Shown here: piece after piece, positions 1,359 through 64,000 of the stretch
How the letters are laid out: every line of letters begins with the position of its first letter
Numbering within the stretch: position 1 is the stretch's first letter
Sequence record: ON528725
From: Shigella phage ESh15
Reading direction: 5' to 3' (one strand)
DNA length: 64,000 bases
The notes under the pieces: model-generated
What the model saw: the letters and a program-made list of their open reading frames with translations, nothing else
What the model was told of the DNA's origin: nothing
Databases searched by the model: none
Made by a program: the position numbers and the translations under genes

Positions 1359-1545
1359 GTTTTAACCCTTTAATAGGAGACAGCTCTTTACCCATACGTA
1401 TGTCAGAAGTCCCATCAACCCATTGAACCGCATACGCTTCATTGATAATACCTGCGCTAGTTTTAAATTCATGGAGAACTTTAAAAATCATCCCAGGGAT
1501 TCCAACACCTTTTAATTGGACTGTTTGTGCTATTAAAAATTTCAT
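1348..1545 (-). CDS. hypothetical protein (65 aa)
   Basis: Track ORF; early promoter-like element (GTTTAC/TATAAT) at 1570-1600 upstream. Confidence 0.3.
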   Translation of the reverse strand: MKFLIAQTVQLKGVGIPGMIFKVLHEFKTSAGIINEAYAVQWVDGTSDIRMGKELSPIKGLKHVE

Positions 1546-1599
1546 ATTTTTCCACTTACTAAAGAAATCATTATACTCTAATCCATCCTTGGATGTAAA

Positions 1600-2217
1600 C
1601 TACTTAACGAAATTAATTTCTACCGGATGAACAACAGGTTGAGCAGTGATATATTGAGTAATTGCTTTCATGACTAGAGCTTCAGAACCAGGATTTTTCT
1701 CAACGAATTCACGTGCTTGGTTATGAGCTTCAAGTTCACTTAGTAAACCGCTTCGTTGGCATCCACGGTCTTGAGTACCCTGTTCAGATAAAAAGACGAC
1801 GATGTATTTTTCGTCATCATCATACGGTTTAGACGGTTGAGCAAATGTTCCTTTACTTCCGAAAGGAGAGTTATGCCGCCACATATCACCGTGAGGAGTT
1901 TCAACCTTCGTGTATTCATGCGGTCCATTTTTCTTAGTTTCTTTCCATGGAACTTCATGGACCTTAGGGTTAGGACATTCAATAAAATGCTCATCTAAAT
2001 CGGTAGAGAATATTAAAGTAAAACAATTACTGAATTTACCAGCACCTGCCTGATAAATTTTACCTTCAGAAGTTCTAATTTCACAAACTGAGCCGGCATC
2101 AGTAACTTCTAAAACTTCAAAAGGCTCGATAAGGTCATATGAGAACATGTTTTTAAGGCGTGGAGTAATATCCCCATTTTTAAAATTCATTTTATAAAAA
2201 GTATTAACTTTAAACAT
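1600..2217 (-). CDS. hypothetical protein (205 aa)
   Basis: Track ORF; RBS GAGGAAA directly upstream of ATG at 2217, preceded by a GGGAGC-UUCG-GCUCCC hairpin. Confidence 0.5.
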   Translation of the reverse strand: MFKVNTFYKMNFKNGDITPRLKNMFSYDLIEPFEVLEVTDAGSVCEIRTSEGKIYQAGAGKFSNCFTLIFSTDLDEHFIECPNPKVHEVPWKETKKNGPHEYTKVETPHGDMWRHNSPFGSKGTFAQPSKPYDDDEKYIVVFLSEQGTQDRGCQRSGLLSELEAHNQAREFVEKNPGSEALVMKAITQYITAQPVVHPVEINFVK

Positions 2218-2252
2218 AATTTCCTCAGTGGGAGCCGAAGCTCCCAGTTAAA

Positions 2253-2618
2253 TTAGATATCAAATTCATTAAGAACTACATCAAAGATTGCTTCGAGATG
2301 TTCAGGTTTAGCTCGGTTGCTCAGGATATGACGAATCCAAGTTTTAACCAGAAGTTTACGATTATCACCATTCCAGCAAGGATGAGTACCTAAATCACGC
2401 TGACGGAAATCATCATCTAATGCAATTTTAAAATTTGAACCTTCCATCGTGATTGAAACCGTGATACCATTTTCAAATCGCATATAAACGTAATTAGGAG
2501 TCATGCACTGTTCGATTTCACAAACTGTACCGTTTTTGTGTTTCCATAAGCAAATAACTTCAGAAGAACCAGCGATACCGTTAGAAACATATTTACGTTC
2601 GAAGTTGATGTAGTTCAT
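2253..2618 (-). CDS. hypothetical protein (121 aa)
   Basis: Track ORF with own early promoter-like element; shares a C..CMTP motif with the next ORF upstream. Confidence 0.45.
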   Translation of the reverse strand: MNYINFERKYVSNGIAGSSEVICLWKHKNGTVCEIEQCMTPNYVYMRFENGITVSITMEGSNFKIALDDDFRQRDLGTHPCWNGDNRKLLVKTWIRHILSNRAKPEHLEAIFDVVLNEFDI

Positions 2619-2659
2619 TTTATTCTCCAGATGTTTAAGTTGTTTGTTGGTACAGGTCT

Positions 2660-2688
2660 ATAATAACATAACCTGTACCAAAGTAAAC
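2660..2688 (-). promoter_or_regulatory. early promoter within a 10-bp inverted repeat (PeSL-like)
   Basis: TGGTACAGGT at 2648-2657 and ACCTGTACCA at 2671-2680 flank the -10; gtaaac at 2683-2688. Confidence 0.45.
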
Positions 2689-2692
2689 TGTT

Positions 2693-3061
2693 TTATGCAA
2701 CTTTAATCCAATTGTCTAAATTTAAAACACCTTTGGCTTTCATTTTTTCGATCAGGTTATCTGCTGTAATGCGTCCATTTTGATACCATGTAACATCTTC
2801 AGAGTAACCAGTTTCTTCGTCAACATATGTTTCTGAACGAATTTTACCGGTAATAATAGTTTTTAATTCGTATGTGTCACCTGTGAAAAAGTTTGCTAAC
2901 ACAATTTTCCAAGAGAAATCATCAGAAGGACCTTCAGGGGTCATACAACTTACGATCTCAAATTGCTCTTTGTATAACATCCACTGGAATTCTTTAATTT
3001 CGATAGCTTTATAACCGTCGTGGTCTTTACATTTGATGTATGAGTTCAGATTGATTTTCAT
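2693..3061 (-). CDS. hypothetical protein (122 aa)
   Basis: Track ORF with own early promoter-like element at 3104-3132; CMTP motif. Confidence 0.45.
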   Translation of the reverse strand: MKINLNSYIKCKDHDGYKAIEIKEFQWMLYKEQFEIVSCMTPEGPSDDFSWKIVLANFFTGDTYELKTIITGKIRSETYVDEETGYSEDVTWYQNGRITADNLIEKMKAKGVLNLDNWIKVA

Positions 3062-3103
3062 TTTGTTCTCCAGTTTGTTTTATTGATTAGGTGGTACAAG
3101 TCT

Positions 3104-3132
3104 ATAGTAACACATCCTACAGGAGAGTAAAC
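3104..3132 (-). promoter_or_regulatory. early promoter (GTTTAC-N17-TACTAT)
   Basis: Plus-strand atagta at 3104-3109 and gtaaac at 3127-3132. Confidence 0.45.
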
Positions 3133-3160
3133 ATCTTTTTAAACTTTTTCTGCCCTAAAC

Positions 3161-3186
3161 GCACAAAAGGGAGACCGAAGTCTCCC
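3161..3186 (-). terminator. intrinsic terminator after the small basic protein gene
   Basis: GGGAGAC-UUCG-GUCUCCC hairpin followed by UUUUGUG. Confidence 0.6.
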
Positions 3187-3191
3187 TAAAA

Positions 3192-3371
3192 TTATGCAAC
3201 AACCTTTCCAAAACGAGAAGCATCATCTCGAAGAACTGCACGTGCTCTGCGCATGATCTTCTCAACTGTTTGATTAATACGAGAGTTCGACCCACGCTTG
3301 TATCCAGCGCGTTTAGAGATACCATCAACTTTCTTTTCAACTGCTTTCTTTGCTTTAGCTTGTTTTGCCAT
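3192..3371 (-). CDS. small basic protein (59 aa, MAKQAKAKKAVEKK...)
   Basis: Hand-translated ORF below the 60-aa track cutoff; Lys/Arg-rich; followed by a hairpin plus U-tract terminator. Confidence 0.3.
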   Translation of the reverse strand: MAKQAKAKKAVEKKVDGISKRAGYKRGSNSRINQTVEKIMRRARAVLRDDASRFGKVVA

Positions 3372-3536
3372 TATAAATTCTCTTTAAATGAAAATGCAGG
3401 ACTTATTGACATTGCCTGCGCAAGCCCTCAAGGGGAACATAGGTTTTTGGATATTTAACGACCAGGATAACCATAAACCCGTCATCATACCAACCACGAC
3501 TTAGACAGATAACCTTTTTCTGACGCGTGATAGCAA

Positions 3537-3785
3537 TTATTTCAAAGTAATAACAAAATGACGAACTGCTTTACGAGCTGCTGAAGCCAAAGGCTTAGCA
3601 TATTTCAGTTCATCTTTTGCTTCCAGTTCAGCAGCCAGAGTAGCCTGAGCAGGATTCAGATGTTTGAAATAACGCAGGATTTCCAGTGCTTCGGCTTCAA
3701 CATCAATTGAAGCGCCGTAGTTTTCGTGACCGTTATTCCATGCGTTGCGTTGCAGTTCAAGAGCGTGTTGTAATTGTTTAATCAT
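3537..3785 (-). CDS. rIII: rIII lysis-inhibition accessory protein
   Basis: 82 aa, same length and strong resemblance to T4 rIII as I recall it; position next to gene 31. Confidence 0.75.
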   Translation of the reverse strand: MIKQLQHALELQRNAWNNGHENYGASIDVEAEALEILRYFKHLNPAQATLAAELEAKDELKYAKPLASAARKAVRHFVITLK

Positions 3786-3901
3786 TTTAAATTCTCAATT
3801 CGAGATAATATTTAGTAGCCACGTTCTTCTGAATTTCACCTTCTTTCGACAAGTCTCTCAGTTGTAGGCTACCGCTTAGAAGAGTGTTCTCTTCATATAG
3901 T

Positions 3902-3909
3902 TATTTATA
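3902..3909 (-). promoter_or_regulatory. late promoter TATAAATA upstream of rIII
   Basis: Exact TATAAATA on the minus strand just after the gene 31 stop. Confidence 0.4.
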
Positions 3910-4242
3910 TCACTTATAAAGACACGGAATAGCTTTATAGTGGCATGTTACGAATTTCTGTTTAATTTCTTTAGGTTGTTTAAGTCCCAAAGCCACAAAT
4001 GGATGTGGAACATTTCGAATTTGTCCAACTGGTAGTGGAGTCAAATCACCGACTTCAACAAAACCTTCAGGAACATCAGGACCTACAGAATGAACTACAC
4101 ATAGTTCAGGAACTTCACCTTGAACACGTTTACCAATCACAAGTCCTGATTCGGTAACTTCTTCATCACCTGCTTGAGCAGGTTCAGAAACCAGAATGAC
4201 ATATTCACCAACAGCACGAATTGGGAGTTGTACTTCAGACAT
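3910..4242 (-). CDS. 31: gp31 co-chaperonin (GroES analogue)
   Basis: 110 aa; [34 protein letters not shown]... near-identical to my recollection of T4 gp31. Confidence 0.9.
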
Positions 4243-4299
4243 CTTATTTCCTTGTTGTTTGACGATAGATTAATAATACCATACTATTCGTAAAGCATA

Positions 4300-4608
4300 T
4301 TACATAAGAAGCAAACGTTCTACCGGAGTACCATCAACCGAAATTACTTTATCAAGGCGGAAAGAACGCCACTGACCTAACTTGGTATCGAATGCTCGAA
4401 CTGATTCACGAGGTTCATAACGAACTTCTGTTGCCGGATTGTTATTTTCATATTTGACTTCAAGTTCATCGCGCGAAGCAAACATAGTGCGTACCTCACC
4501 GTTAGCCTTTTCAAATACAACACAATGAACGCCTACAGACAGAATAGTTTTAATACGTTCACGAAGAACCATAGTTTCTTGTTCAGTTAAAATCATATTA
4601 TTCACCAC
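4300..4608 (-). CDS. hypothetical protein (102 aa, 31.1 position)
   Basis: Track ORF between cd and 31. Confidence 0.45.
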   Translation of the reverse strand: MVNNMILTEQETMVLRERIKTILSVGVHCVVFEKANGEVRTMFASRDELEVKYENNNPATEVRYEPRESVRAFDTKLGQWRSFRLDKVISVDGTPVERLLLM

Positions 4609-9217: not shown

Positions 9218-9570
9218 TCTGAGAGCTTCCTGAGGTCTTCTGCAAAGGAATCAAAGGACCTGTTGATTTGTTTTTCGACCAATCCTGGCTTACTTGCCAC
9301 CACGTTCTTCTTCTTCGAATCCTGACGGAGCTTTTCATTTTCGGCCTTAAGTTGGTCAACTAAAACACGGTTCTTATAAGTCATTTCTTCGATTGACTGA
9401 TATTGAACTTTGAAGTCGTCTAATACTTTAGCATTGTTTTTAGCAGTCTCTTTAACAGAAGCCAATTCAGTATTCAACGAATCAACTTTGTTGTTTAAGA
9501 CAACTATTGTTACAGTAGAAACTAGAGCAAAAGCTGCTACTATAGCGTAAATCGGATTTACTTTAAGCAT
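9214..9570 (-). CDS. type-II inner-membrane coiled-coil protein, probable i-spanin
   Basis: N-terminal TM (IYAIVAAFALVSTVTIVVL) then charged helical region; stop overlaps lipoprotein start. Confidence 0.6.
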   Translation of the reverse strand: MLKVNPIYAIVAAFALVSTVTIVVLNNKVDSLNTELASVKETAKNNAKVLDDFKVQYQSIEEMTYKNRVLVDQLKAENEKLRQDSKKKNVVASKPGLVEKQINRSFDSFAEDLRKLSE

Positions 9571-10058
9571 GTTTTAATAATCTCAATGATTTCATCTCGG
9601 GACAATCCATTGATAAGAACGGTTTTCAAACCATCACACTGGATTTTGTACGATTCAAACAATACACACAACTCTTCTGCTGTATGATATGGACTTGAGA
9701 TTCCGAGGCGGTTGAATTTGTCGGTAAGAGGGTCACAAATAATGTAGAATTTTATACCTGCGATATGTACGTTGGGTTGACTAATATTAATGAACACATT
9801 AGCATCATATTTAGTCAAATTGTTTTGAAGAAATTCTACCATAGCATTAACTGCTTCTGGCATCGCTTCGCGTTTCTCTTCAGCATATCGGGTTGAATAT
9901 TCCTTTTGCTTTAACTTCTTTTTAGCATTTTTCGCTAGAGTAGTACGAAGGTCCGTAAGATAACCAACTGGACGGCCTTTCTTAAAGACCTGGATTCCAT
10001 CTGTAGAATCACCAAATGCTGCCACAACCATATCGTTAGTAATCAATTGCATATTCAT
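9558..10058 (-). CDS. alc: Alc (host transcription shutoff on cytosine DNA)
   Basis: Start placed at internal ATG 10058 with RBS AGGAGA (166 aa); resembles recalled T4 Alc; position between pseT.x and rnlA. Confidence 0.7.
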   Translation of the reverse strand: MNMQLITNDMVVAAFGDSTDGIQVFKKGRPVGYLTDLRTTLAKNAKKKLKQKEYSTRYAEEKREAMPEAVNAMVEFLQNNLTKYDANVFINISQPNVHIAGIKFYIICDPLTDKFNRLGISSPYHTAEELCVLFESYKIQCDGLKTVLINGLSRDEIIEIIKTCLK

Positions 10059-10088
10059 AATTTTCTCCTCGTGTTGTTGACAAAAGCC

Positions 10089-10118
10089 ATAGTAACACCA
10101 TCCTTGGTGTTTGTAAAC
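10089..10118 (-). promoter_or_regulatory. early promoter upstream of alc with ACACCA-tcc-TTGGTGT palindrome in spacer
   Basis: Plus-strand atagta at 10089-10094 and gtaaac at 10113-10118; predicted start falls upstream of the alc ATG at 10058. Confidence 0.5.
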
Positions 10119-10120
10119 CA

Positions 10121-11254
<1,134 letters not shown>

Positions 11255-11270
11255 TCAGTTAGTTTTTTTT

Positions 11271-11300
11271 AATTGTACCACAATCCTTGTGGTATGTAAA
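11271..11300 (-). promoter_or_regulatory. early promoter upstream of rnlA with TACCACAA-tcc-TTGTGGTA palindrome in spacer
   Basis: Plus-strand attgta at 11271-11276 and gtaaac at 11295-11300. Confidence 0.45.
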
Positions 11301-11711
11301 CTACTTTTTCTTATGTTGGATATTCCAAGGCGGGTTGAACTTTTTGATAAAAAGTGGTTCTTCAAGGTCCATTGTTGCGATGGTCATTGAACCAAGTTCG
11401 TTGGTGACTGAAAGGTCAAAACATTGGCGGGCCCAGAATTCAACCTTTTTGCCTTGCATTAAGGCATCCAAAATCATAAGTGATTTTCTTGAATCTGAAG
11501 TCTGGTCTTTTCGATTTATGGCTGTTCGATAATAGTTAATGCGTTTCTTTAAATTCTTGGTTTTACCAATATACACAAGTTCGTCATCTATAGCAATAGC
11601 GTATATGACATTTTTCTTATTAGGGACATCAACTGTTTTAATTGTTGCATCTTCTAATAGCTCCAATTCTGTATATTTAATAAAGGAATATTCGGCGGCA
11701 ATATCTTTCAT
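11301..11711 (-). CDS. denA: endonuclease II (GIY-YIG)
   Basis: 136 aa; NVIYAIAIDDELVYIGKTKNLKKRINYYR GIY-YIG core; near-identical to recalled T4 EndoII. Confidence 0.9.
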   Translation of the reverse strand: MKDIAAEYSFIKYTELELLEDATIKTVDVPNKKNVIYAIAIDDELVYIGKTKNLKKRINYYRTAINRKDQTSDSRKSLMILDALMQGKKVEFWARQCFDLSVTNELGSMTIATMDLEEPLFIKKFNPPWNIQHKKK

Positions 11712-11719
11712 AATAAAGT

Positions 11720-11733
11720 GGGACCGAAGTCCC
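11720..11733 (-). other. UUCG-tetraloop hairpin abutting the denA translation start
   Basis: GGGAC-UUCG-GUCCC ends 8 nt upstream of the denA ATG in the 26-nt nrdB-denA spacer. Confidence 0.5.
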
Positions 11734-11737
11734 GTCC

Positions 11738-12916
11738 TTAGAAATATTTTTTGTATGAATTGATTACATTTTGGTCTACATCATTATCAATTTGTGCGAC
11801 AAGATAAGAACTGATTTCAACTTCCTGAGGAGCTGCTTGAACTAAATCAGAGTTCAGATATTCACGAATCCAAGGATACGGATGCTTGGTCGGAGCATCA
11901 GTGATTGGGCATGGCAAACCACACTGTTTCATACGAGACACAGTCAAGTAATCAACAAAAGCGCACATGCTCTGCGTATTGATACCAGGGCATGTACCGT
12001 CTTTAAAGAGGTGTGCAGCCCATTCCTTCTCTTGACTATTTACTTCCATAAAAATGTCAACTGCTTCTTGTTCACATTCTTTAGCAATTTGAACCCACTC
12101 ATCACCGTCAGTACCAGATTGAAGTTGACGGATAATGTACTGAGTACCCTTAAGGTGGAGTTGTTCGTCACGAGCAATGAACTTCATAATCTTTGCATTG
12201 CCTTCCATAATTTCCATGTTTTTATGGAAGTTAAAGGTACATGCGAAAGATACATAAAAACGAATAGCTTCCAAGGCGTTAATTACATGAAGGCAAAGAT
12301 AAAGAGATTTCATTAGCTCACGCTTCCAATATGTCTCATGCCCAATAGCATCTTCAATAACGTCTTCGTCTGCATTAATTTCTTTTTGGTATTCGATATC
12401 AGCTTTAGCGTTTTCCCAATAACGAGTTTTAACCAGAACATCATCGTAATATTTACCTATTGATTCAGCTCGTTTCATGATTGCTTCGTCTAATACAATC
12501 TCATCAAATACCTTAGATGGATCGGTATAAAGATTTCGCATAATATGAGTATATGAACGAGAGTGAATAGTTTCACTGAATGTCCATGTTGCAACCCATG
12601 TATCTAATGAAGGGTCGGAAATCAATGCCATAAGTACCGCAGATGGGGCCCTGCCTTGGATAGAATCTAATAATGATTGATACTTAAGGTTGTTTGTAAA
12701 GATGTCCTGTTGGAACTGAGGAAGCTTATTGAACTGCGCAGAGTCCAACATCAAGTTTACCTCTTCTGGGCGCCAGAAAAACGACAATTGCTTTTCAATA
12801 AGTTCTTCAAAAACTTTATGACGCTGAATATCATACCGTGCAAGACCAAGGCCGGAACCAAAGAACATCGGTTCGTTCAAAACATCGACTTGCTGTGTAT
12901 TAAAAACTGTACTCAT
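11738..12916 (-). CDS. nrdB: ribonucleotide reductase small subunit
   Basis: 392 aa, uninterrupted (no intron); di-iron/tyrosyl radical family, close to T4 NrdB. Confidence 0.95.
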   Translation of the reverse strand: MSTVFNTQQVDVLNEPMFFGSGLGLARYDIQRHKVFEELIEKQLSFFWRPEEVNLMLDSAQFNKLPQFQQDIFTNNLKYQSLLDSIQGRAPSAVLMALISDPSLDTWVATWTFSETIHSRSYTHIMRNLYTDPSKVFDEIVLDEAIMKRAESIGKYYDDVLVKTRYWENAKADIEYQKEINADEDVIEDAIGHETYWKRELMKSLYLCLHVINALEAIRFYVSFACTFNFHKNMEIMEGNAKIMKFIARDEQLHLKGTQYIIRQLQSGTDGDEWVQIAKECEQEAVDIFMEVNSQEKEWAAHLFKDGTCPGINTQSMCAFVDYLTVSRMKQCGLPCPITDAPTKHPYPWIREYLNSDLVQAAPQEVEISSYLVAQIDNDVDQNVINSYKKYF

Positions 12917-12970
12917 TATATTTTCTCACTTAGTTATAACTCATCCATGAGTAAATTATAATCAAAAGTC

Positions 12971-15226
12971 TTAAAGCTTACAAGCAGAGCAATCTTCGGC
13001 TTTAGGTGTTTCTAATTCGTAGTCATCTGTACCTGACCCATCACGAGTGTTATGATAGTAGAGATTTTTTCCGCCAAAGTACCAGAAGTAAAGCAGATCG
13101 TCAAGCATTACTGACATTGGCACTTTACCTTTCTCAAATACTGCAGGGTCATAGTAAGTATTAGCAGAAGCAGATTGGCACACCCATTTCAACATGATAG
13201 CAACTTGGGTCAAATAAGGTTTATTACCTTTCTTAGCAAGTTTCCACGCGTAGTCGTAAAGACTCATGTTATGTTCGATATTAGGAACAACCTGTCGGAA
13301 GTTGCCTTCTTTAGATTCTTTAATACTTACAGGTCCACGAGGTGGCTCTATACCGTTTGTGCTATTTGAGACTTGACTGCTTGATTCGCATGGCATGAGT
13401 GCAGACAACGTTGAGTTACGAATTCCATGTTCTTTGAGTTCAGCTCGAAGTTCTTCCCAGTCACAGACGTAGTTCGGGGCTGCGATTTGGTCAATCTTTT
13501 TATTGTACCAGTCGATAGGTAATTCGCCTCTAGACCATTTAGTGTCTGAATAATACTCACAAGGTCCTTTTTCTTTGGCGAGTTTGATTGAAGCTTTGAT
13601 AAGGCCATATTGCAATCTCTCAAACAATTCATGAGTCAAATCGTTAGCGTCTTCATATGAAGCAAAGTTAGAAGCTAACCATGCAGCATAGTTCGTCACA
13701 CCAACACCGAGATTTCGACGCTTTTTAGCTTTTAAAGCTTCTGGAACCGGATAATCTTGATAGTCTAACAGGTTATCAAGTGCACGTACTTGTACTTCAG
13801 CAAGTTCATTAATTTTATCTTGGTCTTGCCAATCAAATTTATCTAATACAAAAGCAGATAACGTGCATAAACCAATTTCAGCATCAGGACCATTCACATC
13901 ATTAGTTGGAATAGCGATTTCACAACATAAGTTACTCTGTCGAATTGGAGCTTTTTCACGAATAAACGGAGTGTAGTTATTCGTATTATCAACAAACTGT
14001 GGATAAATTCGAGCAGTACCAGAACGTTCAGTCATGAACAGTTCAAAGAGTTCTAGTGCTTTGATTCTTTTCTTTCTGATTGTTGGGTCTTTTTCAGCTT
14101 TCTCATAAAGTTCACGGAATTTATCTTGATCTTCAAAGAAAGAGTAATATAGTTCGCCTGACATTTCGTGAGGGCTAAATAAAGTAATATAATCATTTTT
14201 ACCAAGGCGTTCCATCATGAGGTCATTAATCTGAATTCCGTAGTCCATATGTCGAATACGGTTTTCATCCACACCTTTGTTATTTTTCAGAACCAACAGG
14301 TTCTCTACTTCTAAGTGCCACATCGGATAATACGCCGTAGCAGCACCACCACGAATACCACCTTGAGAACAAGATTTTACTGCAGTTTGGAAATGTTTCC
14401 AGAATGGAATAACACCAGTATGACGAACTTCACCCATACCAATCTTAGAACCTTCTGCACGAAGCATACCAACGTTGATACCGATACCAGCTCGTTTAGA
14501 AATATATTCAATAATTGATGCTGAAGTTTTGTTAATAGATTTTAACGAATCACCGGCTTCAATAACTACACAACTAGAGAACTGGCGAGTTGGAGTACGA
14601 GCACCTGCCATAATTGGGGTAGGCAATGAAACTTGATGAGTAGAAACAGCATCATAAAAACGAATAATATGTTTCAAACGGTCATGAGTTTCGTCTTGAT
14701 GTAAGGCCATACCAATAGCCATGATAGCAAACTGTGGAGTTTCATAAATCTTCCCAGTTGTTTTATCTTTAACCAGGTATTTTTCTTTAAGCTGCATAGC
14801 ACCAGCATAAGTCAGGTCAAAATCTCGTTCATGTTTAATTTGAGAATCGAGATAAATGATTTCTTCTGCAGAATATCTAGACAATAACTCAGGGTCGTAT
14901 TTGCCTTCATTAACACAATATGAGATATGGTCGATAAAAGCAGGAGGTTCAAACTGTCCATATACGTCTTTACGAAGCGCAAACATTAATCCTTTAGCGG
15001 CAACATATTGATAATCAGGTTCTTCGACAGAAATCGAGTTAGCTGCAACTTTAATACAAATCTTCTGGATATCTTTGGTGCTCATCCCATCAACCAGATG
15101 AGTCTTAATTTCTTCATACAATTCGTATGGGTCAATTTGTGTTCCTTCACATTGCCAAGTTAATACTTGAATAATTTTCTGTGCATCAAAATTTTGGGAT
15201 ACCCCACTGCTCTTAGTTACTTGCAT
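12971..15226 (-). CDS. nrdA: ribonucleotide reductase large subunit
   Basis: 751 aa class Ia RNR alpha; active-site region NLCCEI and C-terminal Cys pair. Confidence 0.95.
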   Translation of the reverse strand: MQVTKSSGVSQNFDAQKIIQVLTWQCEGTQIDPYELYEEIKTHLVDGMSTKDIQKICIKVAANSISVEEPDYQYVAAKGLMFALRKDVYGQFEPPAFIDHISYCVNEGKYDPELLSRYSAEEIIYLDSQIKHERDFDLTYAGAMQLKEKYLVKDKTTGKIYETPQFAIMAIGMALHQDETHDRLKHIIRFYDAVSTHQVSLPTPIMAGARTPTRQFSSCVVIEAGDSLKSINKTSASIIEYISKRAGIGINVGMLRAEGSKIGMGEVRHTGVIPFWKHFQTAVKSCSQGGIRGGAATAYYPMWHLEVENLLVLKNNKGVDENRIRHMDYGIQINDLMMERLGKNDYITLFSPHEMSGELYYSFFEDQDKFRELYEKAEKDPTIRKKRIKALELFELFMTERSGTARIYPQFVDNTNNYTPFIREKAPIRQSNLCCEIAIPTNDVNGPDAEIGLCTLSAFVLDKFDWQDQDKINELAEVQVRALDNLLDYQDYPVPEALKAKKRRNLGVGVTNYAAWLASNFASYEDANDLTHELFERLQYGLIKASIKLAKEKGPCEYYSDTKWSRGELPIDWYNKKIDQIAAPNYVCDWEELRAELKEHGIRNSTLSALMPCESSSQVSNSTNGIEPPRGPVSIKESKEGNFRQVVPNIEHNMSLYDYAWKLAKKGNKPYLTQVAIMLKWVCQSASANTYYDPAVFEKGKVPMSVMLDDLLYFWYFGGKNLYYHNTRDGSGTDDYELETPKAEDCSACKL

Positions 15227-17824: not shown

Positions 17825-18187
17825 TTATTTTATTCCAAAAATTTCTTTAATTTCTGCAATCACATCTCGAGCATTTTCTACAGTAACTTCAAAGATGAGT
17901 GACTGTTTAGAAATAGACTCTGGAGATACCTCGATGAAGTGTTTGAACTCATCATCGTAAAGCTCAAAATATGAACCTGGAGGACCATCAAAACCAAATT
18001 CAGTACCGTCTTGCATAGTTACGCTGGTTACGCATTTATCATCATCGTACTCAGTGTTCATGTCCTTTACAACAAAACTAGGACCATGGAGCTCAATCAA
18101 ATCCAACATATCAGCATTTTGTGGGCATTCATTGGCAAATGCAGCTTTACATTCTGGATTGATGATGTACGTTTTTCCAATTTTCAT
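17825..18187 (-). CDS. hypothetical protein (120 aa), paralogue of previous ORF
   Basis: Tandem duplicate, each copy with its own promoter cassette. Confidence 0.5.
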   Translation of the reverse strand: MKIGKTYIINPECKAAFANECPQNADMLDLIELHGPSFVVKDMNTEYDDDKCVTSVTMQDGTEFGFDGPPGSYFELYDDEFKHFIEVSPESISKQSLIFEVTVENARDVIAEIKEIFGIK

Positions 18188-18217
18188 TTCGATTTCCTCA
18201 TTTGTTTTGATAGGTCT

Positions 18218-18246
18218 ATAGTATCATATCTCAAGGAGAAGTAAAC
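18218..18246 (-). promoter_or_regulatory. early promoter for the frd.3-position paralogue
   Basis: Plus-strand atagta at 18218-18223 and gtaaac at 18241-18246. Confidence 0.45.
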
Positions 18247-18269
18247 AACTTTTTCGGTAATTTACAGAT

Positions 18270-18295
18270 ACTCAAAAGGGAGACCGAAGTCTCCC
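18270..18295 (-). terminator. intrinsic terminator downstream of gene 32
   Basis: GGGAGAC-UUCG-GUCUCCC hairpin followed by UUUUGAG on the minus-strand transcript. Confidence 0.7.
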
Positions 18296-18301
18296 GATTT
18301 A

Positions 18302-19204
18302 TTATAGACCGGCTAACAGGTCATCGAGGTCACCATCATCAGAGGATGAGGTAGAGCTCATGAAGTCATCTTCAGTTTTTGCAGAGCTAAAGGCTTCCAT
18401 GTCTTTATCAAAATCGTCAAGGTCAGAAGCAACTTTATCTGCAACAGAAGCTGCTGCGGCTGCTGCACCACCAAGAGCGGCAGTACCAAGAACCTTAGCG
18501 AAAGATTCATTTAATTTTTCAAAGGATTTGAACTGGTCTTTAGCCGTCAAAGTAGTAAGGTCTACCATCTGGTCATATAGTTCTTTCTGGAATGCTTCGT
18601 CATTAATACGAGGAATTTCAGATTGACCCAAGAATTTAGATTCGTCATAGTTGCTAAAACCGGAAACCTGCTTAGCTTTCAGAACGAAGTTAGCACCTTC
18701 AAACGGACAAGTAACATCAACTGGAGTTTCACCCATTTCGGTATCAACTGCAATCATTGCATTGATTTTGTCCCAAATCTTTTTACCGAAACGATATTTA
18801 AATACTTTACCTTCGTTATCTGGAGCTTGAGGGTCTTTAACAACCAGAATATTAGCCCAATAAGAAGTTTTACGTTTCAGTTGAGAATATTCAGTTTTGT
18901 TTGTATTGTACAGGTCATTTTTACTAATGTACTGACATACAGGACAAGAGTCGTAATCACCATGTGTAGAAGAGCAATTTTCAATATACCATTTACCATT
19001 TTTCTTGAAACCGTGGTTAACAAGAATTGCAAATGGTAGTGCATCATCAGTTTTTGCTGGCAAGAAACGAATTACCGCTTGACCATTACCTGATGCATCT
19101 AGCTTCAGCTTCCATTCGCCTTTATCTTCTGAAGAGAAACCTTTGTTACCGTTCAGTTTAGCCATTTGAGCAGCGAGGTCAGCAGTAGATTTACGTTTAA
19201 ACAT
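18302..19204 (-). CDS. 32: single-stranded DNA-binding protein gp32
   Basis: 300 aa; near-identical to recalled T4 gp32 including acidic C-terminal tail. Confidence 0.95.
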
Positions 19205-42237: not shown

Positions 42238-43338
42238 TTACGCTGTGAAGATTTTATCCCACATCGCAACAACTGCATCTCGGTTATACTTCTTCCATAC
42301 GGCTTCAGCACGTTTAACTCGAGCTTCGTATGTGTCAGTGAATTCTAATACAGCTTTTGTGTAAAGCGCAACTACTTCTTTCTTAGGAGTAGAGGAATCA
42401 ATTTCTACACGCACAGTATCTGGGTCATATTCGAATGTCGCGTGCGGATAATCCTTAAAAACTAACTGAATCACAGGTACACCTTTAGAGATGGCTTCAA
42501 TAGAACTATTCTCTACCGTACCCGTGTCAGGACACGTATTGATAAGTGCTTTAGCTGTTTTAAGACGTTCCATAATTTCACTGTGTGGAGCATCAATAAT
42601 AACAGGATACTTGGCCGGTGGTGCCCATTTGCTTGGACAGTATCCTGCGCCATTTTCGCCTAATGCTTTAATCGCTTCAAGAGCAACATCAGTACGACGC
42701 ATCTTAGTGTCATAACGTTGAGCACTAATAATCAAATCAGTTGCTGGAAGAACTTCAGGTTTCTCATTCAAACAAATAACCGGATAATCTTCGGCTTCAA
42801 ACAACGGATTTGCTCGCCAATAATCATAATCAATTTTGTCAGTCAGTCCTGAAGTCATATAACAATATTTGCGTTCAAATTCACGGAAGGCTTTAGTAGG
42901 AGCATAACTCTTACCACCGTTCTTATGAATTTGAATAGTCTGGTCCCAAATTTGAACAATGCCACGAGATACCGGTTCAAATGGTGTCGCCATAAAATTC
43001 TTATGAACTTTAGAGAGACCTGCGTCTTTAATTGCCTGAACGGTTAGTTTGGTCGGTTCCATTGTAACAACGAAATCGTACTCATTGATGCCGGCTAGTT
43101 CAACAATCTTACGAGCCATAGTATAACTCATACCTAGACTGAATTTAGTCAGATGACCAACAGGATGATGATTAACCTTCCAGTCACCAAACGTGTCATT
43201 ATCAAAACCGATATAATCAATATCAGCACCGATGGACACAAGATATTTCAATACATTTAAATGTACTGCTTCAAGACCACCTTGTACACGTTCAGGATTA
43301 AATGGGACTGCACGAGATGGGATAAACATAACTTTCAT
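42238..43338 (-). CDS. GT-B fold glycosyltransferase (GT4-like), candidate DNA hydroxymethylcytosine sugar transferase
   Basis: 366 aa; C-terminal TGTVENSSIEAISKGVPVIQ fits the GT4 E-x7-E motif; occupies the slot between rIIA.1 and gene 39. Confidence 0.6.
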   Translation of the reverse strand: MKVMFIPSRAVPFNPERVQGGLEAVHLNVLKYLVSIGADIDYIGFDNDTFGDWKVNHHPVGHLTKFSLGMSYTMARKIVELAGINEYDFVVTMEPTKLTVQAIKDAGLSKVHKNFMATPFEPVSRGIVQIWDQTIQIHKNGGKSYAPTKAFREFERKYCYMTSGLTDKIDYDYWRANPLFEAEDYPVICLNEKPEVLPATDLIISAQRYDTKMRRTDVALEAIKALGENGAGYCPSKWAPPAKYPVIIDAPHSEIMERLKTAKALINTCPDTGTVENSSIEAISKGVPVIQLVFKDYPHATFEYDPDTVRVEIDSSTPKKEVVALYTKAVLEFTDTYEARVKRAEAVWKKYNRDAVVAMWDKIFTA

Positions 43339-61361: not shown

Positions 61362-61724
61362 TTAAAAGAATTTAAATTTTTTCTTGGTTCGTTCATTAAA
61401 AGCTTGTTGTACCTGCATTGTAACACATTTTTCAACATGTGGTGCAAGTTCTGCTTTTCTGTCCTGGTCAAGAACTGCAAAGTCCATTACGATTTTACCA
61501 TCAACCCAATCTAGTTTTGTAATATAGACTATATGATGGGAACCGTCTTCAAGCGTAATCAGAATCTCTTGAATGACATTTTCCATTGCTGAACGGATAA
61601 TTTTAAGAGATTCATTAAACACTCGTTCTTTGCGAATGTCCTCCCCTTCCGAAGAAGGGGATTCATCAACGATTTCTAGATTTAAATCATCGAGATTATT
61701 CATCGAAATCTTCCATTTCGTCAA
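61362..61724 (-). CDS. 40: gp40 head vertex assembly protein
   Basis: 120 aa in gene 40 position between uvsX and 41; overlaps uvsX 3' end. Confidence 0.65.
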   Translation of the reverse strand: MTKWKISMNNLDDLNLEIVDESPSSEGEDIRKERVFNESLKIIRSAMENVIQEILITLEDGSHHIVYITKLDWVDGKIVMDFAVLDQDRKAELAPHVEKCVTMQVQQAFNERTKKKFKFF

Positions 61725-62868
61725 GGTCGTTTTCTATATCTGCTGCAGATGGAGCATCAGAAGTTTTAACCGGAACTTTAGTTGTTGCTTTGCAATTAAT
61801 AAGGTCGTTAACAGCGTCATCAACTTCTTTAATAGAAGAGATAGCGCCTAGTTTATATTTAGTTTCAATTGCATCTCGGAAAGGTTTGTGTTTAAACAAC
61901 GGTCCCCAGAATTCTACGCAATCAGTAGCTTTAGCACGCCATGATTTCTCTTCACGAATCATTTCACCTGTTTCTTCGTCAAGGAATTCACGAGCATACC
62001 AACCGGCTTTAGGTTTAACTACAAAACCAATTTCAGTTGCCATTTCTAGCAAGCCACTGAATGGGTCGATACCACCATCAAAATTAACCGTGATTGGGAA
62101 AGTAGATTTTTCTTTAACAGTACGAGATTTTTCTGCTTTCAACGTGAAGTCATAACCGGTCAATTCTGTACCTTCTTTAACCTGACGTTTAGAGATAAAG
62201 AATACAGTGTTAGCAGAGTAAAGAATACCTGTACCACCACCCATAATCTCTTTAGGATATAATCCGCCGATTTCCATTGCTGTATGGTTGATTGCAACAC
62301 ATGGAATATCTTTAATAGTCAGATACGGGGTTACAATACGGAAAAGAGATTTAAGTGCCTTAGCACGAGACATATCACCTACGACTTTCTCGTTCAATGC
62401 ATCTTCGGTTTCTTTCTTAGATGCAGTATTACCGATTGAATCGATAAAGATAATAACTTTATCACCGCGTTCAATAGCATCAAGCTGATTAGTCATATCA
62501 ACTTTAAGTTGTTCGACCGATTGAATTGGTGTATGAACTACACGGTCTAAATCAACACCCATTGAACGAAAATAAGATTCTGAAGCACCAAATTCCGAAT
62601 CATAGAACAAACAGATTGCATCTTTATATTTCTTCATATACGCTGCAACCATAGTTAGTCCAAACAATGTTTTAAAATGTTTAGAAGGTGCAGCAAAAAT
62701 AGTTAAGCCTGATTGCAATCCTGCATTCAGAGCACCACCTAGTGCAATATTCAACATCGGAATACGAGTAGGGACTTCATCACGATTATTAAACAGCTTA
62801 GACTTAGTCAAGTCTGCAGTCATTTTAGAAGTAGAAGCTTTAATCAGACGAGATTTTAAATCAGACAT
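61696..62868 (-). CDS. uvsX: UvsX recombinase (RecA-like)
   Basis: 390 aa; RecA-fold motifs and acidic C-terminus; close to recalled T4 UvsX. Confidence 0.95.
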   Translation of the reverse strand: MSDLKSRLIKASTSKMTADLTKSKLFNNRDEVPTRIPMLNIALGGALNAGLQSGLTIFAAPSKHFKTLFGLTMVAAYMKKYKDAICLFYDSEFGASESYFRSMGVDLDRVVHTPIQSVEQLKVDMTNQLDAIERGDKVIIFIDSIGNTASKKETEDALNEKVVGDMSRAKALKSLFRIVTPYLTIKDIPCVAINHTAMEIGGLYPKEIMGGGTGILYSANTVFFISKRQVKEGTELTGYDFTLKAEKSRTVKEKSTFPITVNFDGGIDPFSGLLEMATEIGFVVKPKAGWYAREFLDEETGEMIREEKSWRAKATDCVEFWGPLFKHKPFRDAIETKYKLGAISSIKEVDDAVNDLINCKATTKVPVKTSDAPSAADIENDLDEMEDFDE

Positions 62869-62967
62869 TGTATTTTTCCATAGGCATCATTATATTTTAC
62901 TCATGTTTAAAAGATAAGATGATTATATACTAAGAGTTATACAGCATTTAAAACTTTAAACAGGCTC

Positions 62968-63516
62968 TTAACGAGCCCATTTGATGATTTCTGTAATCAA
63001 ACCATTACGTTCGCTTGCATTAAATCCTATAACTTTGTTAGCACCATCATGATTAAGTAATTGATACGTTTGGATTTTGTTATGAATTGCAAACTCTTCA
63101 AAATGTGAAATGACTGTATTAAAACCGAATGAAGACAAAGTAATAAGGTCGTCTTCAAAACTTTCAGTCATTTCATTACGTGTTAAAATAATTGTGAACA
63201 CATCATGGTTTTGGCAAAGACGAACATAGTCCTGTTCATAAACGTCAAGAATCGAGTCCGCATCTTGTCGAATACGTCCATAAACCCAGTTACTAATATA
63301 TCCACGGTCTAACAGATAAATCTTAGTAGGGTCTAAATAATTCAACATCGTTTCGAAACAGCCAACTTCATTTCGAGACTTAACATCGAAACGTCCATCA
63401 ACTGTTCGTTTAGGGAAATCAATCTTCACATATCTTTCACTAATTTCCATTATGTCATTAATGAAAGTTGTTTTACCGGCATTATCCGGGCCATCTACTA
63501 AAATAATTTTAGCCAT
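62968..63516 (-). CDS. P-loop nucleotide kinase, thymidylate-kinase-like fold
   Basis: 182 aa; Walker A VDGPDNAGKTT and LLDRGYISNWVYG fitting the D-R-x-x-x-S-x-x-x-Y element of dTMP/dNMP kinases. Confidence 0.55.
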   Translation of the reverse strand: MAKIILVDGPDNAGKTTFINDIMEISERYVKIDFPKRTVDGRFDVKSRNEVGCFETMLNYLDPTKIYLLDRGYISNWVYGRIRQDADSILDVYEQDYVRLCQNHDVFTIILTRNEMTESFEDDLITLSSFGFNTVISHFEEFAIHNKIQTYQLLNHDGANKVIGFNASERNGLITEIIKWAR

Positions 63517-63517
63517 T

Positions 63518-63982
63518 TTATTCCTCGATTACGACATCTTCGTATTTAGGTATATTATACGGTGAAGAAATTAAAGCATTAAAGTAGATGAACTCACCAA
63601 GACCTGGATGGAATACTTCTTCAGGATTTTCGAAATATTGAATTTTCGGACGTCCTTTAAGAATTTGATAGTACTCAGTTTTAGTTGGTTTAAAAATTCG
63701 AATCAGTGCTTCTTCAGGATACTTATTTCTGTCGAAGCTATTATTTGGATCGGTTATATAAAGCGGTTGACCTAATTGAATTGCACATTCAACCACTTGT
63801 TCAAAACGATAACATGGGTCACTAATTCGAAATGGATGAAAAATACCATCTACATGAATAGGAGCCAAATCACCTACAAGACGCTGCATGATGGAAGGAC
63901 GTATAACTTTCTGCGTTACGATAATCTTATTACCATCTGCACCTGCGTTAACCAGCACTTCTTTTTGACGTTCATTCAACAC
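63518..63982 (-). CDS. hypothetical protein (154 aa)
   Basis: Track ORF upstream of the kinase-like gene. Confidence 0.4.
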   Translation of the reverse strand: MLNERQKEVLVNAGADGNKIIVTQKVIRPSIMQRLVGDLAPIHVDGIFHPFRISDPCYRFEQVVECAIQLGQPLYITDPNNSFDRNKYPEEALIRIFKPTKTEYYQILKGRPKIQYFENPEEVFHPGLGEFIYFNALISSPYNIPKYEDVVIEE

Positions 63983-64000
63983 AGTAGTTTGAAGTGAACG

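Follow-up and report, generated by a model that had tools for sequence, protein, structure and literature searches.

A divergent thymidylate kinase-fold gene beside a proposed arabinosyltransferase 1 gene in an RB69-like Shigella phage, and its possible role in 5-hydroxycytosine DNA synthesis

The kinase gene and its neighbours

The DNA analysed here, called the window, is a stretch of 64,000 nucleotides from Shigella phage ESh15 (record ON528725), whose sequence identifies its source as an RB69-like Mosigvirus. We were concerned with one gene near its end, at 62968-63516 on the minus strand, which a preliminary description had reported as encoding a 182-aa P-loop protein with the element DRGYISNWVY; the protein was found exactly as described. 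The open reading frame (ORF) is a real gene, far beyond a chance ORF, and it has counterparts in PHROG 761 ("thymidylate kinase"; E 9.7e-45) and in 343 phage records. Its product, which starts MAKIILVDGPDNAGKTT, was 100% identical over all 182 aa to AYN56375.1 of phage p000v (tblastn), 98.4% identical to RB69 gp45 (NP_861735.1) and 98-100% identical to the Mosigvirus orthologues, which places it within the RB69 gp45 orthologue group. At the nucleotide level, the 2.4 kb surrounding the gene were 98% identical to phages phiEC1, FP43, and p000v. The genes that bear on its context are as follows.

62968-63516, minus strand: kinase gene, 182 codons plus stop, taken from the ORF list; orthologue of RB69 gp45 (RB69p045, NP_861735.1)
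63518-64000, minus strand: C-terminal 160 codons of the upstream glycosyltransferase, equivalent to RB69 gp46:47, the proposed arabinosyltransferase 1 (AraT1)
63522-63526, minus strand: GAGGA Shine-Dalgarno sequence, within the last codons of the upstream glycosyltransferase
61696-62868, minus strand: uvsX, downstream of the kinase gene after a 99-bp spacer

Both the kinase and its fold-level label were already known, as it has been published as the predicted nucleotide kinase of the arabinosyl-5-hydroxycytosine cluster. Table 1 of Lee et al. (NAR 2026; PMC13326640) lists RB69 gp45, in the gp45-gp55 cluster, and gp78 of Acinetobacter phage DLP3 as "nucleotide kinase"; the label was assigned by fold matching alone, and it stands as a table entry that the text of that paper does not discuss. 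Nothing material distinguishes the window kinase from either protein. RefSeq and several submitters use the name "thymidylate kinase", which is probably too specific for reasons given below.

The reading frame of the upstream glycosyltransferase contains no stop over 161 codons and runs past the end of the window; it matches PHROG 3891 from position 146 to 300 of 306, and the intact gene in p000v encodes 299 aa. As a single base separates its TAA (63518-63520) from the kinase ATG and the GAGGA sequence falls in its last codons, the two genes are probably translationally coupled. A scan of 62600-64000 for promoters and terminators gave nothing over the shuffled expectation. Downstream of the kinase gene come uvsX and then genes 40 (gp40) and 41 (gp41), so that the order within the window is the AraT1 C-terminus, kinase, and uvsX, the window stopping short of the synthase that makes 5-hydroxy-dCMP (5hodCMP). 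The full cluster is present in RB69 and p000v, with the kinase gene 3' of the 5hodCMP synthase and AraT1 genes and 5' of uvsX; in p000v the synthase, AraT1, and kinase genes abut or overlap, with the kinase the last of a tightly packed string. The placement of the kinase gene in a DNA-modification neighbourhood is thereby upheld. The RB69 reference splits the AraT1 gene into ORF046c and ORF047c, a split that Lee et al. blamed on sequencing error (PMC13326640); the window reads as one continuous frame. Some GenBank records name the same gene 'RNA polymerase binding protein'.

The comparison with T4 had to be corrected. The preliminary description placed bgt directly upstream of uvsX in T4 and the kinase gene in the position of bgt; the T4 order is in fact 42, b-gt, segA, uvsX, with segA immediately upstream of uvsX, b-gt next, and then gene 42. 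Set against the p000v order of synthase, glycosyltransferase, kinase, and uvsX, this puts the kinase gene in the slot of the homing endonuclease gene segA, and it is the upstream glycosyltransferase gene, from 63518 to beyond 64000, that corresponds in position to b-gt, and not the kinase gene.

Fold and conserved residues

The AlphaFold2 (AF2) model of the kinase, with a predicted local distance difference test score (pLDDT) of 92.6, has the overall fold of thymidylate kinases (TMPK). A profile of the family searched against sequences in the PDB matched YorR (2.3e-8) and vaccinia TMPK (2.5e-7), and hhalign gave 95% probability against a small alignment of TMPK sequences from vaccinia, human, yeast, and E. 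coli. The profile searches yielded no match to an unrelated P-loop family. Together with conservation of the P-loop, FPxR, and DRY..S..Y motifs, these results uphold the TMPK-like character first noticed in the sequence. In TMPK these elements bind ATP, the phosphate of the deoxynucleoside monophosphate (dNMP), and deoxyribose, the Arg of FPxR being the residue that binds the nucleoside monophosphate phosphate. Conservation was scored in an alignment of 51 homologues, and residue roles were assigned through sequence alignments, not structural superposition. The corresponding segments are as follows.

63466-63492, minus strand: P-loop, G9-P-D-N-A-G-K-T-T17, from the homologue alignment; vaccinia TMPK counterpart GLDKSGKTT
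63406-63417, minus strand: F34-P35-K36-R37, from the alignments; counterpart of the dTMP-kinase FPxR (vaccinia FPQR)
63367-63372, minus strand: N49-E50; hhalign sets E50 at the position of vaccinia R72
63280-63309, minus strand: D70-R71-G-Y-I-S75-N76-W-V78-Y79, from the sequence and alignments; counterpart of DRY..S..Y (vaccinia DRYAFSGVAY)
63142-63180, minus strand: R113-N...F120-E-D122-D123-L-I125, family-specific loop in the LID position, from the alignment and AF2

The two hallmark dTMP-kinase motifs, a GxxxxGK[ST] P-loop (G9PDNAGKT16) and D70-R71, are both present. Within the P-loop G9, D11, G14, and K15 were invariant, and N12, found in 44 of the 51 homologues, occupies the position of the Arg or Lys of type-I dTMP kinases. 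K36 was likewise invariant, residue 37 was R or K in 41/51, and D70, R71, S75, N76, and Y79 were invariant, with Gly as the third residue of the DR[YH]-type motif. In the loop at the LID position R113 (50/51), D122 (51/51), and D123 (50/51) were conserved, and this loop, R113 to I125, was the least confident part of the AF2 model (block pLDDT 65). The other invariant or near-invariant residues were R83, V78, F120, I125, and F132-N133. The family is acidic, with a median isoelectric point (pI) of 5.1, and the window protein carries a net charge of -8.

The features for recognition of thymine, a stacking Phe and an O4-binding Arg, were not found. In vaccinia TMPK we take these to be F68 and R72, in helix alpha3. 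Both HMMER and hhalign put the LLF segment with the stacking Phe in a deletion in the kinase, and the position aligned with R72 was Glu or Asp in 48 of the 51 family members, although it adjoins an 11-residue alignment gap and its register is uncertain. An acidic residue at this position is what would be expected for contact with the exocyclic amine of cytosine and not with the carbonyl of thymine; by analogy, it resembles the change from Asn to Asp through which ThyA homologues come to accept dCMP (PMC13326640). Curated models for thymidylate kinases did not recognise the protein either. A Pfam scan gave no PF02223 match at E<=1, only P-loop noise below threshold (AAA_14 and MMR_HSR1), and the score for TIGR00041 was 15.9 bits where the cutoff is 83.25.

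Compared with known thymidylate kinases (PF02223; vaccinia A48R, 2V54; Thermus thermophilus, 5X7J), then, the kinase shares 8-18% identity, is about 25-30 residues shorter, has a short hairpin and one helix in place of the alpha2/alpha3 base-binding segment, carries Asn for the P-loop Arg/Lys and Glu/Asp at the aligned thymine-binding Arg, has an essentially invariant DD loop in place of the LID, and falls below the Pfam and NCBIfam thresholds. In the printed alignment YorR of the Bacillus subtilis SPbeta prophage (PDB 2AXP / 3KB2) shows neither the FPK motif spacing nor the FEDDLI loop, and, being uncharacterised, it offers no functional transfer to the kinase. The T4 gp1-type dNMP kinase (RB69 gp159; PDB 1DEL/1DEK), a phage kinase for modified dCMP, is a likely functional analogue; structural similarity between the kinase and 1DEL/1DEK was not found.

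The 5-hydroxymethyluracil (5-hmU) DNA kinases, 5-HMUDK, exemplified by gp54 of Pseudomonas phage M6 (PMC8989533), resemble the kinase in being small P-loop kinases of phages, with their genes in clusters for pyrimidine hypermodification. The hhalign probability of 87.8% against M6 gp54 covered only about 80 columns around the P-loop, and the FPK and DR motifs were not shared; on this basis membership of the kinase in the 5-HMUDK family was rejected. In addition, M6 gp54 is basic (pI 8.7), whereas gp45 is acidic, and the substrates differ in chemistry, a benzylic CH2OH for 5-HMUDK as against a ring OH in 5-hydroxycytosine (5hoC). M6 gp56 was unrelated to the kinase.

Co-occurrence with the 5-hydroxy-dCMP synthase

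Among isolate phages the kinase was detected in 343 records (tblastn) and the RB69-type synthase in 342 (E<=1e-40). By genus label the numbers of records with kinase and with synthase agreed for Escherichia (177 each), Acinetobacter (57), Shigella (14), Enterobacter (9), Serratia (9), Enterobacteria (8), Proteus (7), and Yersinia (6), and stood at 25 and 26, respectively, for Klebsiella; co-occurrence here means matching totals, genus counts, and sampled loci, not a record-by-record intersection. The ThyA homologue next to the kinase carried MRSQN, the D169N signature that Lee et al. consider diagnostic for 5hodCMP synthases (PMC13326640), in 6 of 6 sampled Straboviridae, whereas T4 gp42 has MRSND. 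T4 b-gt was present in 126 records, from other phages. When the pol-uvsX regions of four b-gt phages (T4, Serratia PS2, Enterobacter PG7, and Acinetobacter AB1I1M-1) were searched with a hidden Markov model (HMM) of the kinase family, there was no match at a limit as loose as E<=10, so that the free co-occurrence with bgt that would have spoken against the preliminary interpretation was not seen in these phages. A check for correlation had also been suggested with the following glycosyltransferase gene of the window.

42238-43338, minus strand: second DNA arabinosyltransferase, RB69 gp3 type (PMC13326640 Table 1), of the same pathway and narrower in distribution than the kinase

This gene occurred in 211 records, from Mosigvirus and Acinetobacter T4-like phages only, as against 343 for the kinase, and the two do not track each other. 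Its homologues are often present as two copies per Acinetobacter genome, and some records label this type of gene 'DNA alpha-glucosyltransferase'.

The position of the kinase gene varies within the Straboviridae. It follows the glycosyltransferase gene in Mosigvirus, Ac42, and Morganella Rgz1, and in Dhakavirus, Marfavirus, and Bragavirus it follows a HAD phosphatase gene and overlaps its end. A small gene annotated as chorismate mutase lies directly 5' of the 5hodCMP synthase gene in several non-Mosigvirus clusters, for example, at 18023-18400 of the Morganella Rgz1 locus L069 (gp34) and in Serratia LC53 and Proteus Pm5461.

Metagenomic sequences gave the same pairing. The family is small: of 1.84 billion public proteins, 30 representatives reach E<=1e-30 and 68 reach E<=1e-10. 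Among the examples examined it is confined to phage contexts. In IMG/VR, 23 of 24 core kinase loci had the synthase, a glycosyltransferase, and arabinose genes within 10 kb of the kinase, and 44 of 45 evaluable D169N synthase loci had a kinase-HMM match within 10 kb (43 of them at E<=1e-7); here too the neighbouring synthases carried MRSQN (D169N). In loci L096-L105, from an uncultured high-GC myovirus lineage, genes for a flavodoxin-like FMN reductase, the synthase, a glycosyltransferase, and the kinase form a compact cassette (E-values for the kinase about 1e-47), with no arabinose-5-phosphate (A5P) isomerase, AfhE-like, or HAD genes within 10 kb. The FMN reductase fits the flavin dependence of the synthase. 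In L096 (IMGVR_UViG_3300016484_000735, 9481-12259) this cassette lies on the plus strand amid minus-strand genes that include tail sheath and an amidoligase-like gene. A further lineage, L106/L107, has a remote kinase together with the synthase, an unassigned protein of 438 aa, and a sugar epimerase that depends on NAD. As the sugar-supply genes vary in this way across loci, the constant partners of the kinase are the synthase and a glycosyltransferase. Rhizobium phage RL38J1, with hexosylated 5hoC, may be a further case in view of Table 1 of Lee et al., which gives a fold-predicted "nucleotide kinase" (tag 214) beside a glycosyltransferase (215) and synthase (216) (PMC13326640); our search of the isolate collection with the L096-type kinase did not lead to RL38J1, and the link comes from that table only.

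More remote small kinases (E about 1e-4 to 1e-5; L010 at 182-2080 and L009 at 1419-4528) adjoin other ThyA homologues, whose residue at the site of E. coli ThyA N177 is Asp, a dCMP-type signature. One of these pairs is followed by a dihydrofolate reductase gene, and the other has dUTPase and dCMP deaminase genes around it. These cases suggest a wider habit of small TMPK-like kinases pairing with cytosine-modifying ThyA homologues.

The next-closest relatives of gp45 (E 1e-29 to 1e-13) were fusion proteins of 314-357 aa that join a gp45-like kinase domain to an HhH-GPD domain at the C-terminus. The fusions examined are as follows.

L124, 8001-9074: fusion P0151
L125, 1446-2390: fusion P0152
L126, 127-1092: fusion P0154
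L128, 5454-6425: fusion P0157
L129, 863-1807: fusion P0160

In their kinase domain the P-loop, DR..SD..Y, and an acidic ED/DD/DS..K[IL] loop remain and FPK is lost; their C-terminal domain is homologous to the glycosylase domain of MBD4 (PDB 4ew4, E 1.1e-9) with the catalytic Asp aligned. In the four loci with upstream sequence (L124, L125, L128, and L129) the fusion gene directly follows a ThyA homologue with MRSNN...YD (D169N + N177D; 4/4), and where downstream sequence exists a putative glycosyltransferase gene (Glyco_transf_4-like in L129/L130) follows; the reading frames overlap. L124 also encodes an FMN reductase, an A5P isomerase with 48% identity to that of p000v, and an AfhE-like gene. 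The pairing of kinase and HhH domains in these distant relatives recalls that of 5-HMUDK with aGPT-Pplase (PMC8989533); there was no match to a Pfam aGPT-Pplase model, and neither aGPT-Pplase nor an HhH glycosylase-like transferase was seen in the window or the Straboviridae loci. The fusions could reflect kinase action at the level of DNA, a nucleotide supply tethered to DNA, or unrelated repair such as removal of deaminated 5hoC.

A possible role in nucleotide supply, and competing explanations

RB69 DNA was once believed to contain arabinosyl-hydroxymethylcytosine (PMC6024577), and the preliminary description framed its suggestions around hydroxymethylcytosine (hmC). That view is outdated; according to Lee et al. 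the modification is mono- and di-arabinosylated 5-hydroxycytosine (PMC13326640). In the same study gp48, a flavin-bound ThyA homologue, makes 5-hydroxy-dCMP; RB69 gp159, the T4-gp1-type dNMP kinase, phosphorylates 5hodCMP in vitro, yielding 5hodCDP; for the synthesis of UDP-arabinofuranose the authors propose gp55, gp52:53, and gp51, on the model of the HY126 phage proteins AfhE and AfhF, as far as the work of He et al. 2026 is relayed there; the first arabinosyl transfer, assigned to gp46:47, is not marked as experimentally confirmed; and later arabinosyl transfers take place on DNA (PMC13326640).

From fold, motif conservation, gene order, and co-occurrence, all observed directly, we infer the catalytic activity of the kinase and its most likely substrate. 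We propose that the kinase is the third part of a cassette with the flavin-dependent D169N 5-hydroxy-dCMP synthase and a DNA glycosyltransferase, and that this divergent TMPK-fold enzyme would phosphorylate the synthase product to the diphosphate with ATP. Nucleoside-diphosphate kinase would then make 5hodCTP, from which the phage polymerase would build 5hoC into DNA for modification there by the arabinosyltransferases. The most economical reading is that gp45 has a role analogous to that of T4 gp1 with a different ancestry, and we give about an even chance to gp45 being a dedicated dNMP kinase for the reaction 5hodCMP + ATP -> 5hodCDP. The kinase tracks the synthase (343 versus 342 records; 44/45 loci) even where no arabinose genes are nearby, so context favours a modified nucleotide as substrate. 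We also count in favour of this proposal that the Glu/Asp at the aligned O4-binding Arg position (48/51) would make the enzyme not thymine-specific, and that it persists in cassettes with no arabinose genes or with other sugar genes and is in that sense independent of the sugar pathway. The tight packing of the synthase, AraT1, and kinase genes and the occurrence of the remote small kinases next to dCMP-type ThyA homologues count in the same direction. The preliminary suggestion of a modified nucleotide or a sugar-nucleotide precursor was thus divided by the evidence, the former being plausible in view of the tracking with the 5hodCMP synthase and the latter unlikely given the AfhE-type enzyme; with its observation confirmed, the earlier interpretation as a whole is partly supported.

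Several observations weigh against this proposal. As gp159 already makes 5hodCDP, gp45 is not strictly required for the step, and gp159 and the synthase suffice for 5hodC in E. coli DNA (PMC13326640). The presence of Asn12 for the catalytic Arg/Lys and a LID without the usual basic cluster imply a catalytic geometry unlike that of a textbook TMPK. The position after a HAD phosphatase in Dhakavirus, Marfavirus, and Bragavirus means that T4-like gene order alone cannot tell a nucleotide role from a sugar role. One metagenomic locus, L113 (IMGVR_UViG_3300018410_000011, 10001-13700), the sole clear break in the pairing of synthase with kinase, has a D169N synthase, along with weak A5P-isomerase-like, AfhE-like, and glycosyltransferase-like genes, and no kinase-family match within 10 kb. 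In the converse case, Morganella phage vB_MmoM_MP1 (NC_031020; L019 9334-10525) encodes an intact kinase with all the invariant residues between the polymerase and uvsX genes, with only two small genes between polymerase and kinase and the block from A5P isomerase to glycosyltransferase, including the synthase, missing; no RB69-type synthase was found in the MP1 IMG/VR contig by a synthase pattern scan, while Morganella Rgz1, about 75% identical to MP1 at the nucleotide level, has the whole cluster. This exception suggests a broader substrate range or another role of the kinase. Finally, we found no enzymatic test of gp45 or its orthologues in the accessible literature, outside of which lie He et al. 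2026 and Mahler et al. 2025.

The retention in MP1 of a fully conserved kinase between pol and uvsX, in a contig missing from the synthase scan and with a relative that has the whole cluster, would be explained if the protein were a dNMP kinase of broader specificity, acting on dCMP and modified dCMP or on several dNMPs to boost or protect the phage nucleotide supply, its link with 5hoC being historical; the ability of gp159 to handle 5hodCMP also leaves room for such a role. We regard this as unlikely, though deserving of serious consideration, because in practically every case other than MP1 the gene comes with a D169N synthase, it is absent from the sampled regions of hmC/b-gt phages, and a general-purpose enzyme should be commoner among T4-like phages. 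An ordinary dTMP kinase, the identity given in RefSeq and several submissions, agrees with the top fold and profile matches, which are to dTMP kinases, and with the naming of PHROG 761 and many GenBank records. We consider it very improbable: the protein failed every curated dTMP-kinase threshold (PF02223, TIGR00041), has an acidic residue at the thymine-O4 Arg position and a deletion of the base-stacking Phe segment, and is distributed with a cytosine-modifying enzyme, not with thymidylate metabolism. Moreover, T4-like phages already phosphorylate dTMP with gp1. The overlap of the gene with the HAD phosphatase end in Dhakavirus, Marfavirus, and Bragavirus, after a bifunctional NTP-transferase/kinase gene, would suit a kinase for a sugar or sugar-phosphate precursor of the NDP-arabinose donor. 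The A5P 1-kinase and pyrophosphorylase steps belong, however, to the bifunctional AfhE-type enzyme and the dephosphorylation to AfhF, insofar as PMC13326640 reports these assignments from He et al. 2026; cassettes without arabinose genes or with other sugar genes still have the kinase, and the motifs that it retains are those for nucleotide binding. Sugar-kinase identity was therefore rejected on gene context, that is, on the AfhE/AfhF assignment and the arabinose-free cassettes, and we hold little more than a trace of belief in it.

The fusions bear on a different explanation, which also weighs against a dNMP kinase: the nearest relatives outside the core family are MBD4-like fusions encoded between a D169N synthase and a glycosyltransferase, as might be found if the kinase worked at the level of DNA, phosphorylating 5hoC in DNA at its 5-hydroxyl, or some other group there, or serving as the DNA-associated partner of the first glycosyltransferase. 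Consistent with this are the unconfirmed status of the first transfer by gp46:47 in Lee et al. (PMC13326640), the precedent of nucleobase kinases that work on DNA (PMC8989533), and the hint given by the universal trio of synthase, glycosyltransferase, and kinase. Against it, the core family keeps the mononucleotide motifs FPK and DR..S..Y, whereas the fusions are without FPK; the alignment with M6 gp54 is limited to the P-loop region, with the FPK and DR motifs absent there; the kinase family is acidic (median pI 5.1) and M6 gp54 is not (pI 8.7); a phosphate on a ring-bound oxygen would be expected to block O-glycosylation, not to activate it; and the final RB69 DNA carries no phosphate adduct (PMC13326640). 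We judge such action on DNA to be distinctly unlikely for the kinase, and we are slightly more doubtful still of the general statement that gp45-type kinases act on or at 5-hydroxycytosine in DNA or are obligate partners of the first glycosyltransferase. If the DNA-level explanation were true, these enzymes would join the 5-hmU DNA kinases as a second class of DNA kinases directed at nucleobases.

Glycosylation of 5-hydroxycytosine was recognised as a widespread phage anti-restriction chemistry only in 2025-2026. In the accessible literature roles have been assigned or tested for the synthase, for the enzymes of sugar activation, and for the later transferases, and the kinase is the sole conserved member without one; what this second kinase does at the side of almost all 5hodCMP synthases is where the remaining interest lies. 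If the kinase does otherwise than we propose, as MP1 and the glycosylase fusions might indicate, the model of the pathway has a gap. If it is a dedicated 5hodCMP kinase, the pathway would be complete, and the gene would be of use in producing 5hoC DNA in heterologous hosts and would serve, beside the D169N synthase, as a genomic marker for 5hoC phages.

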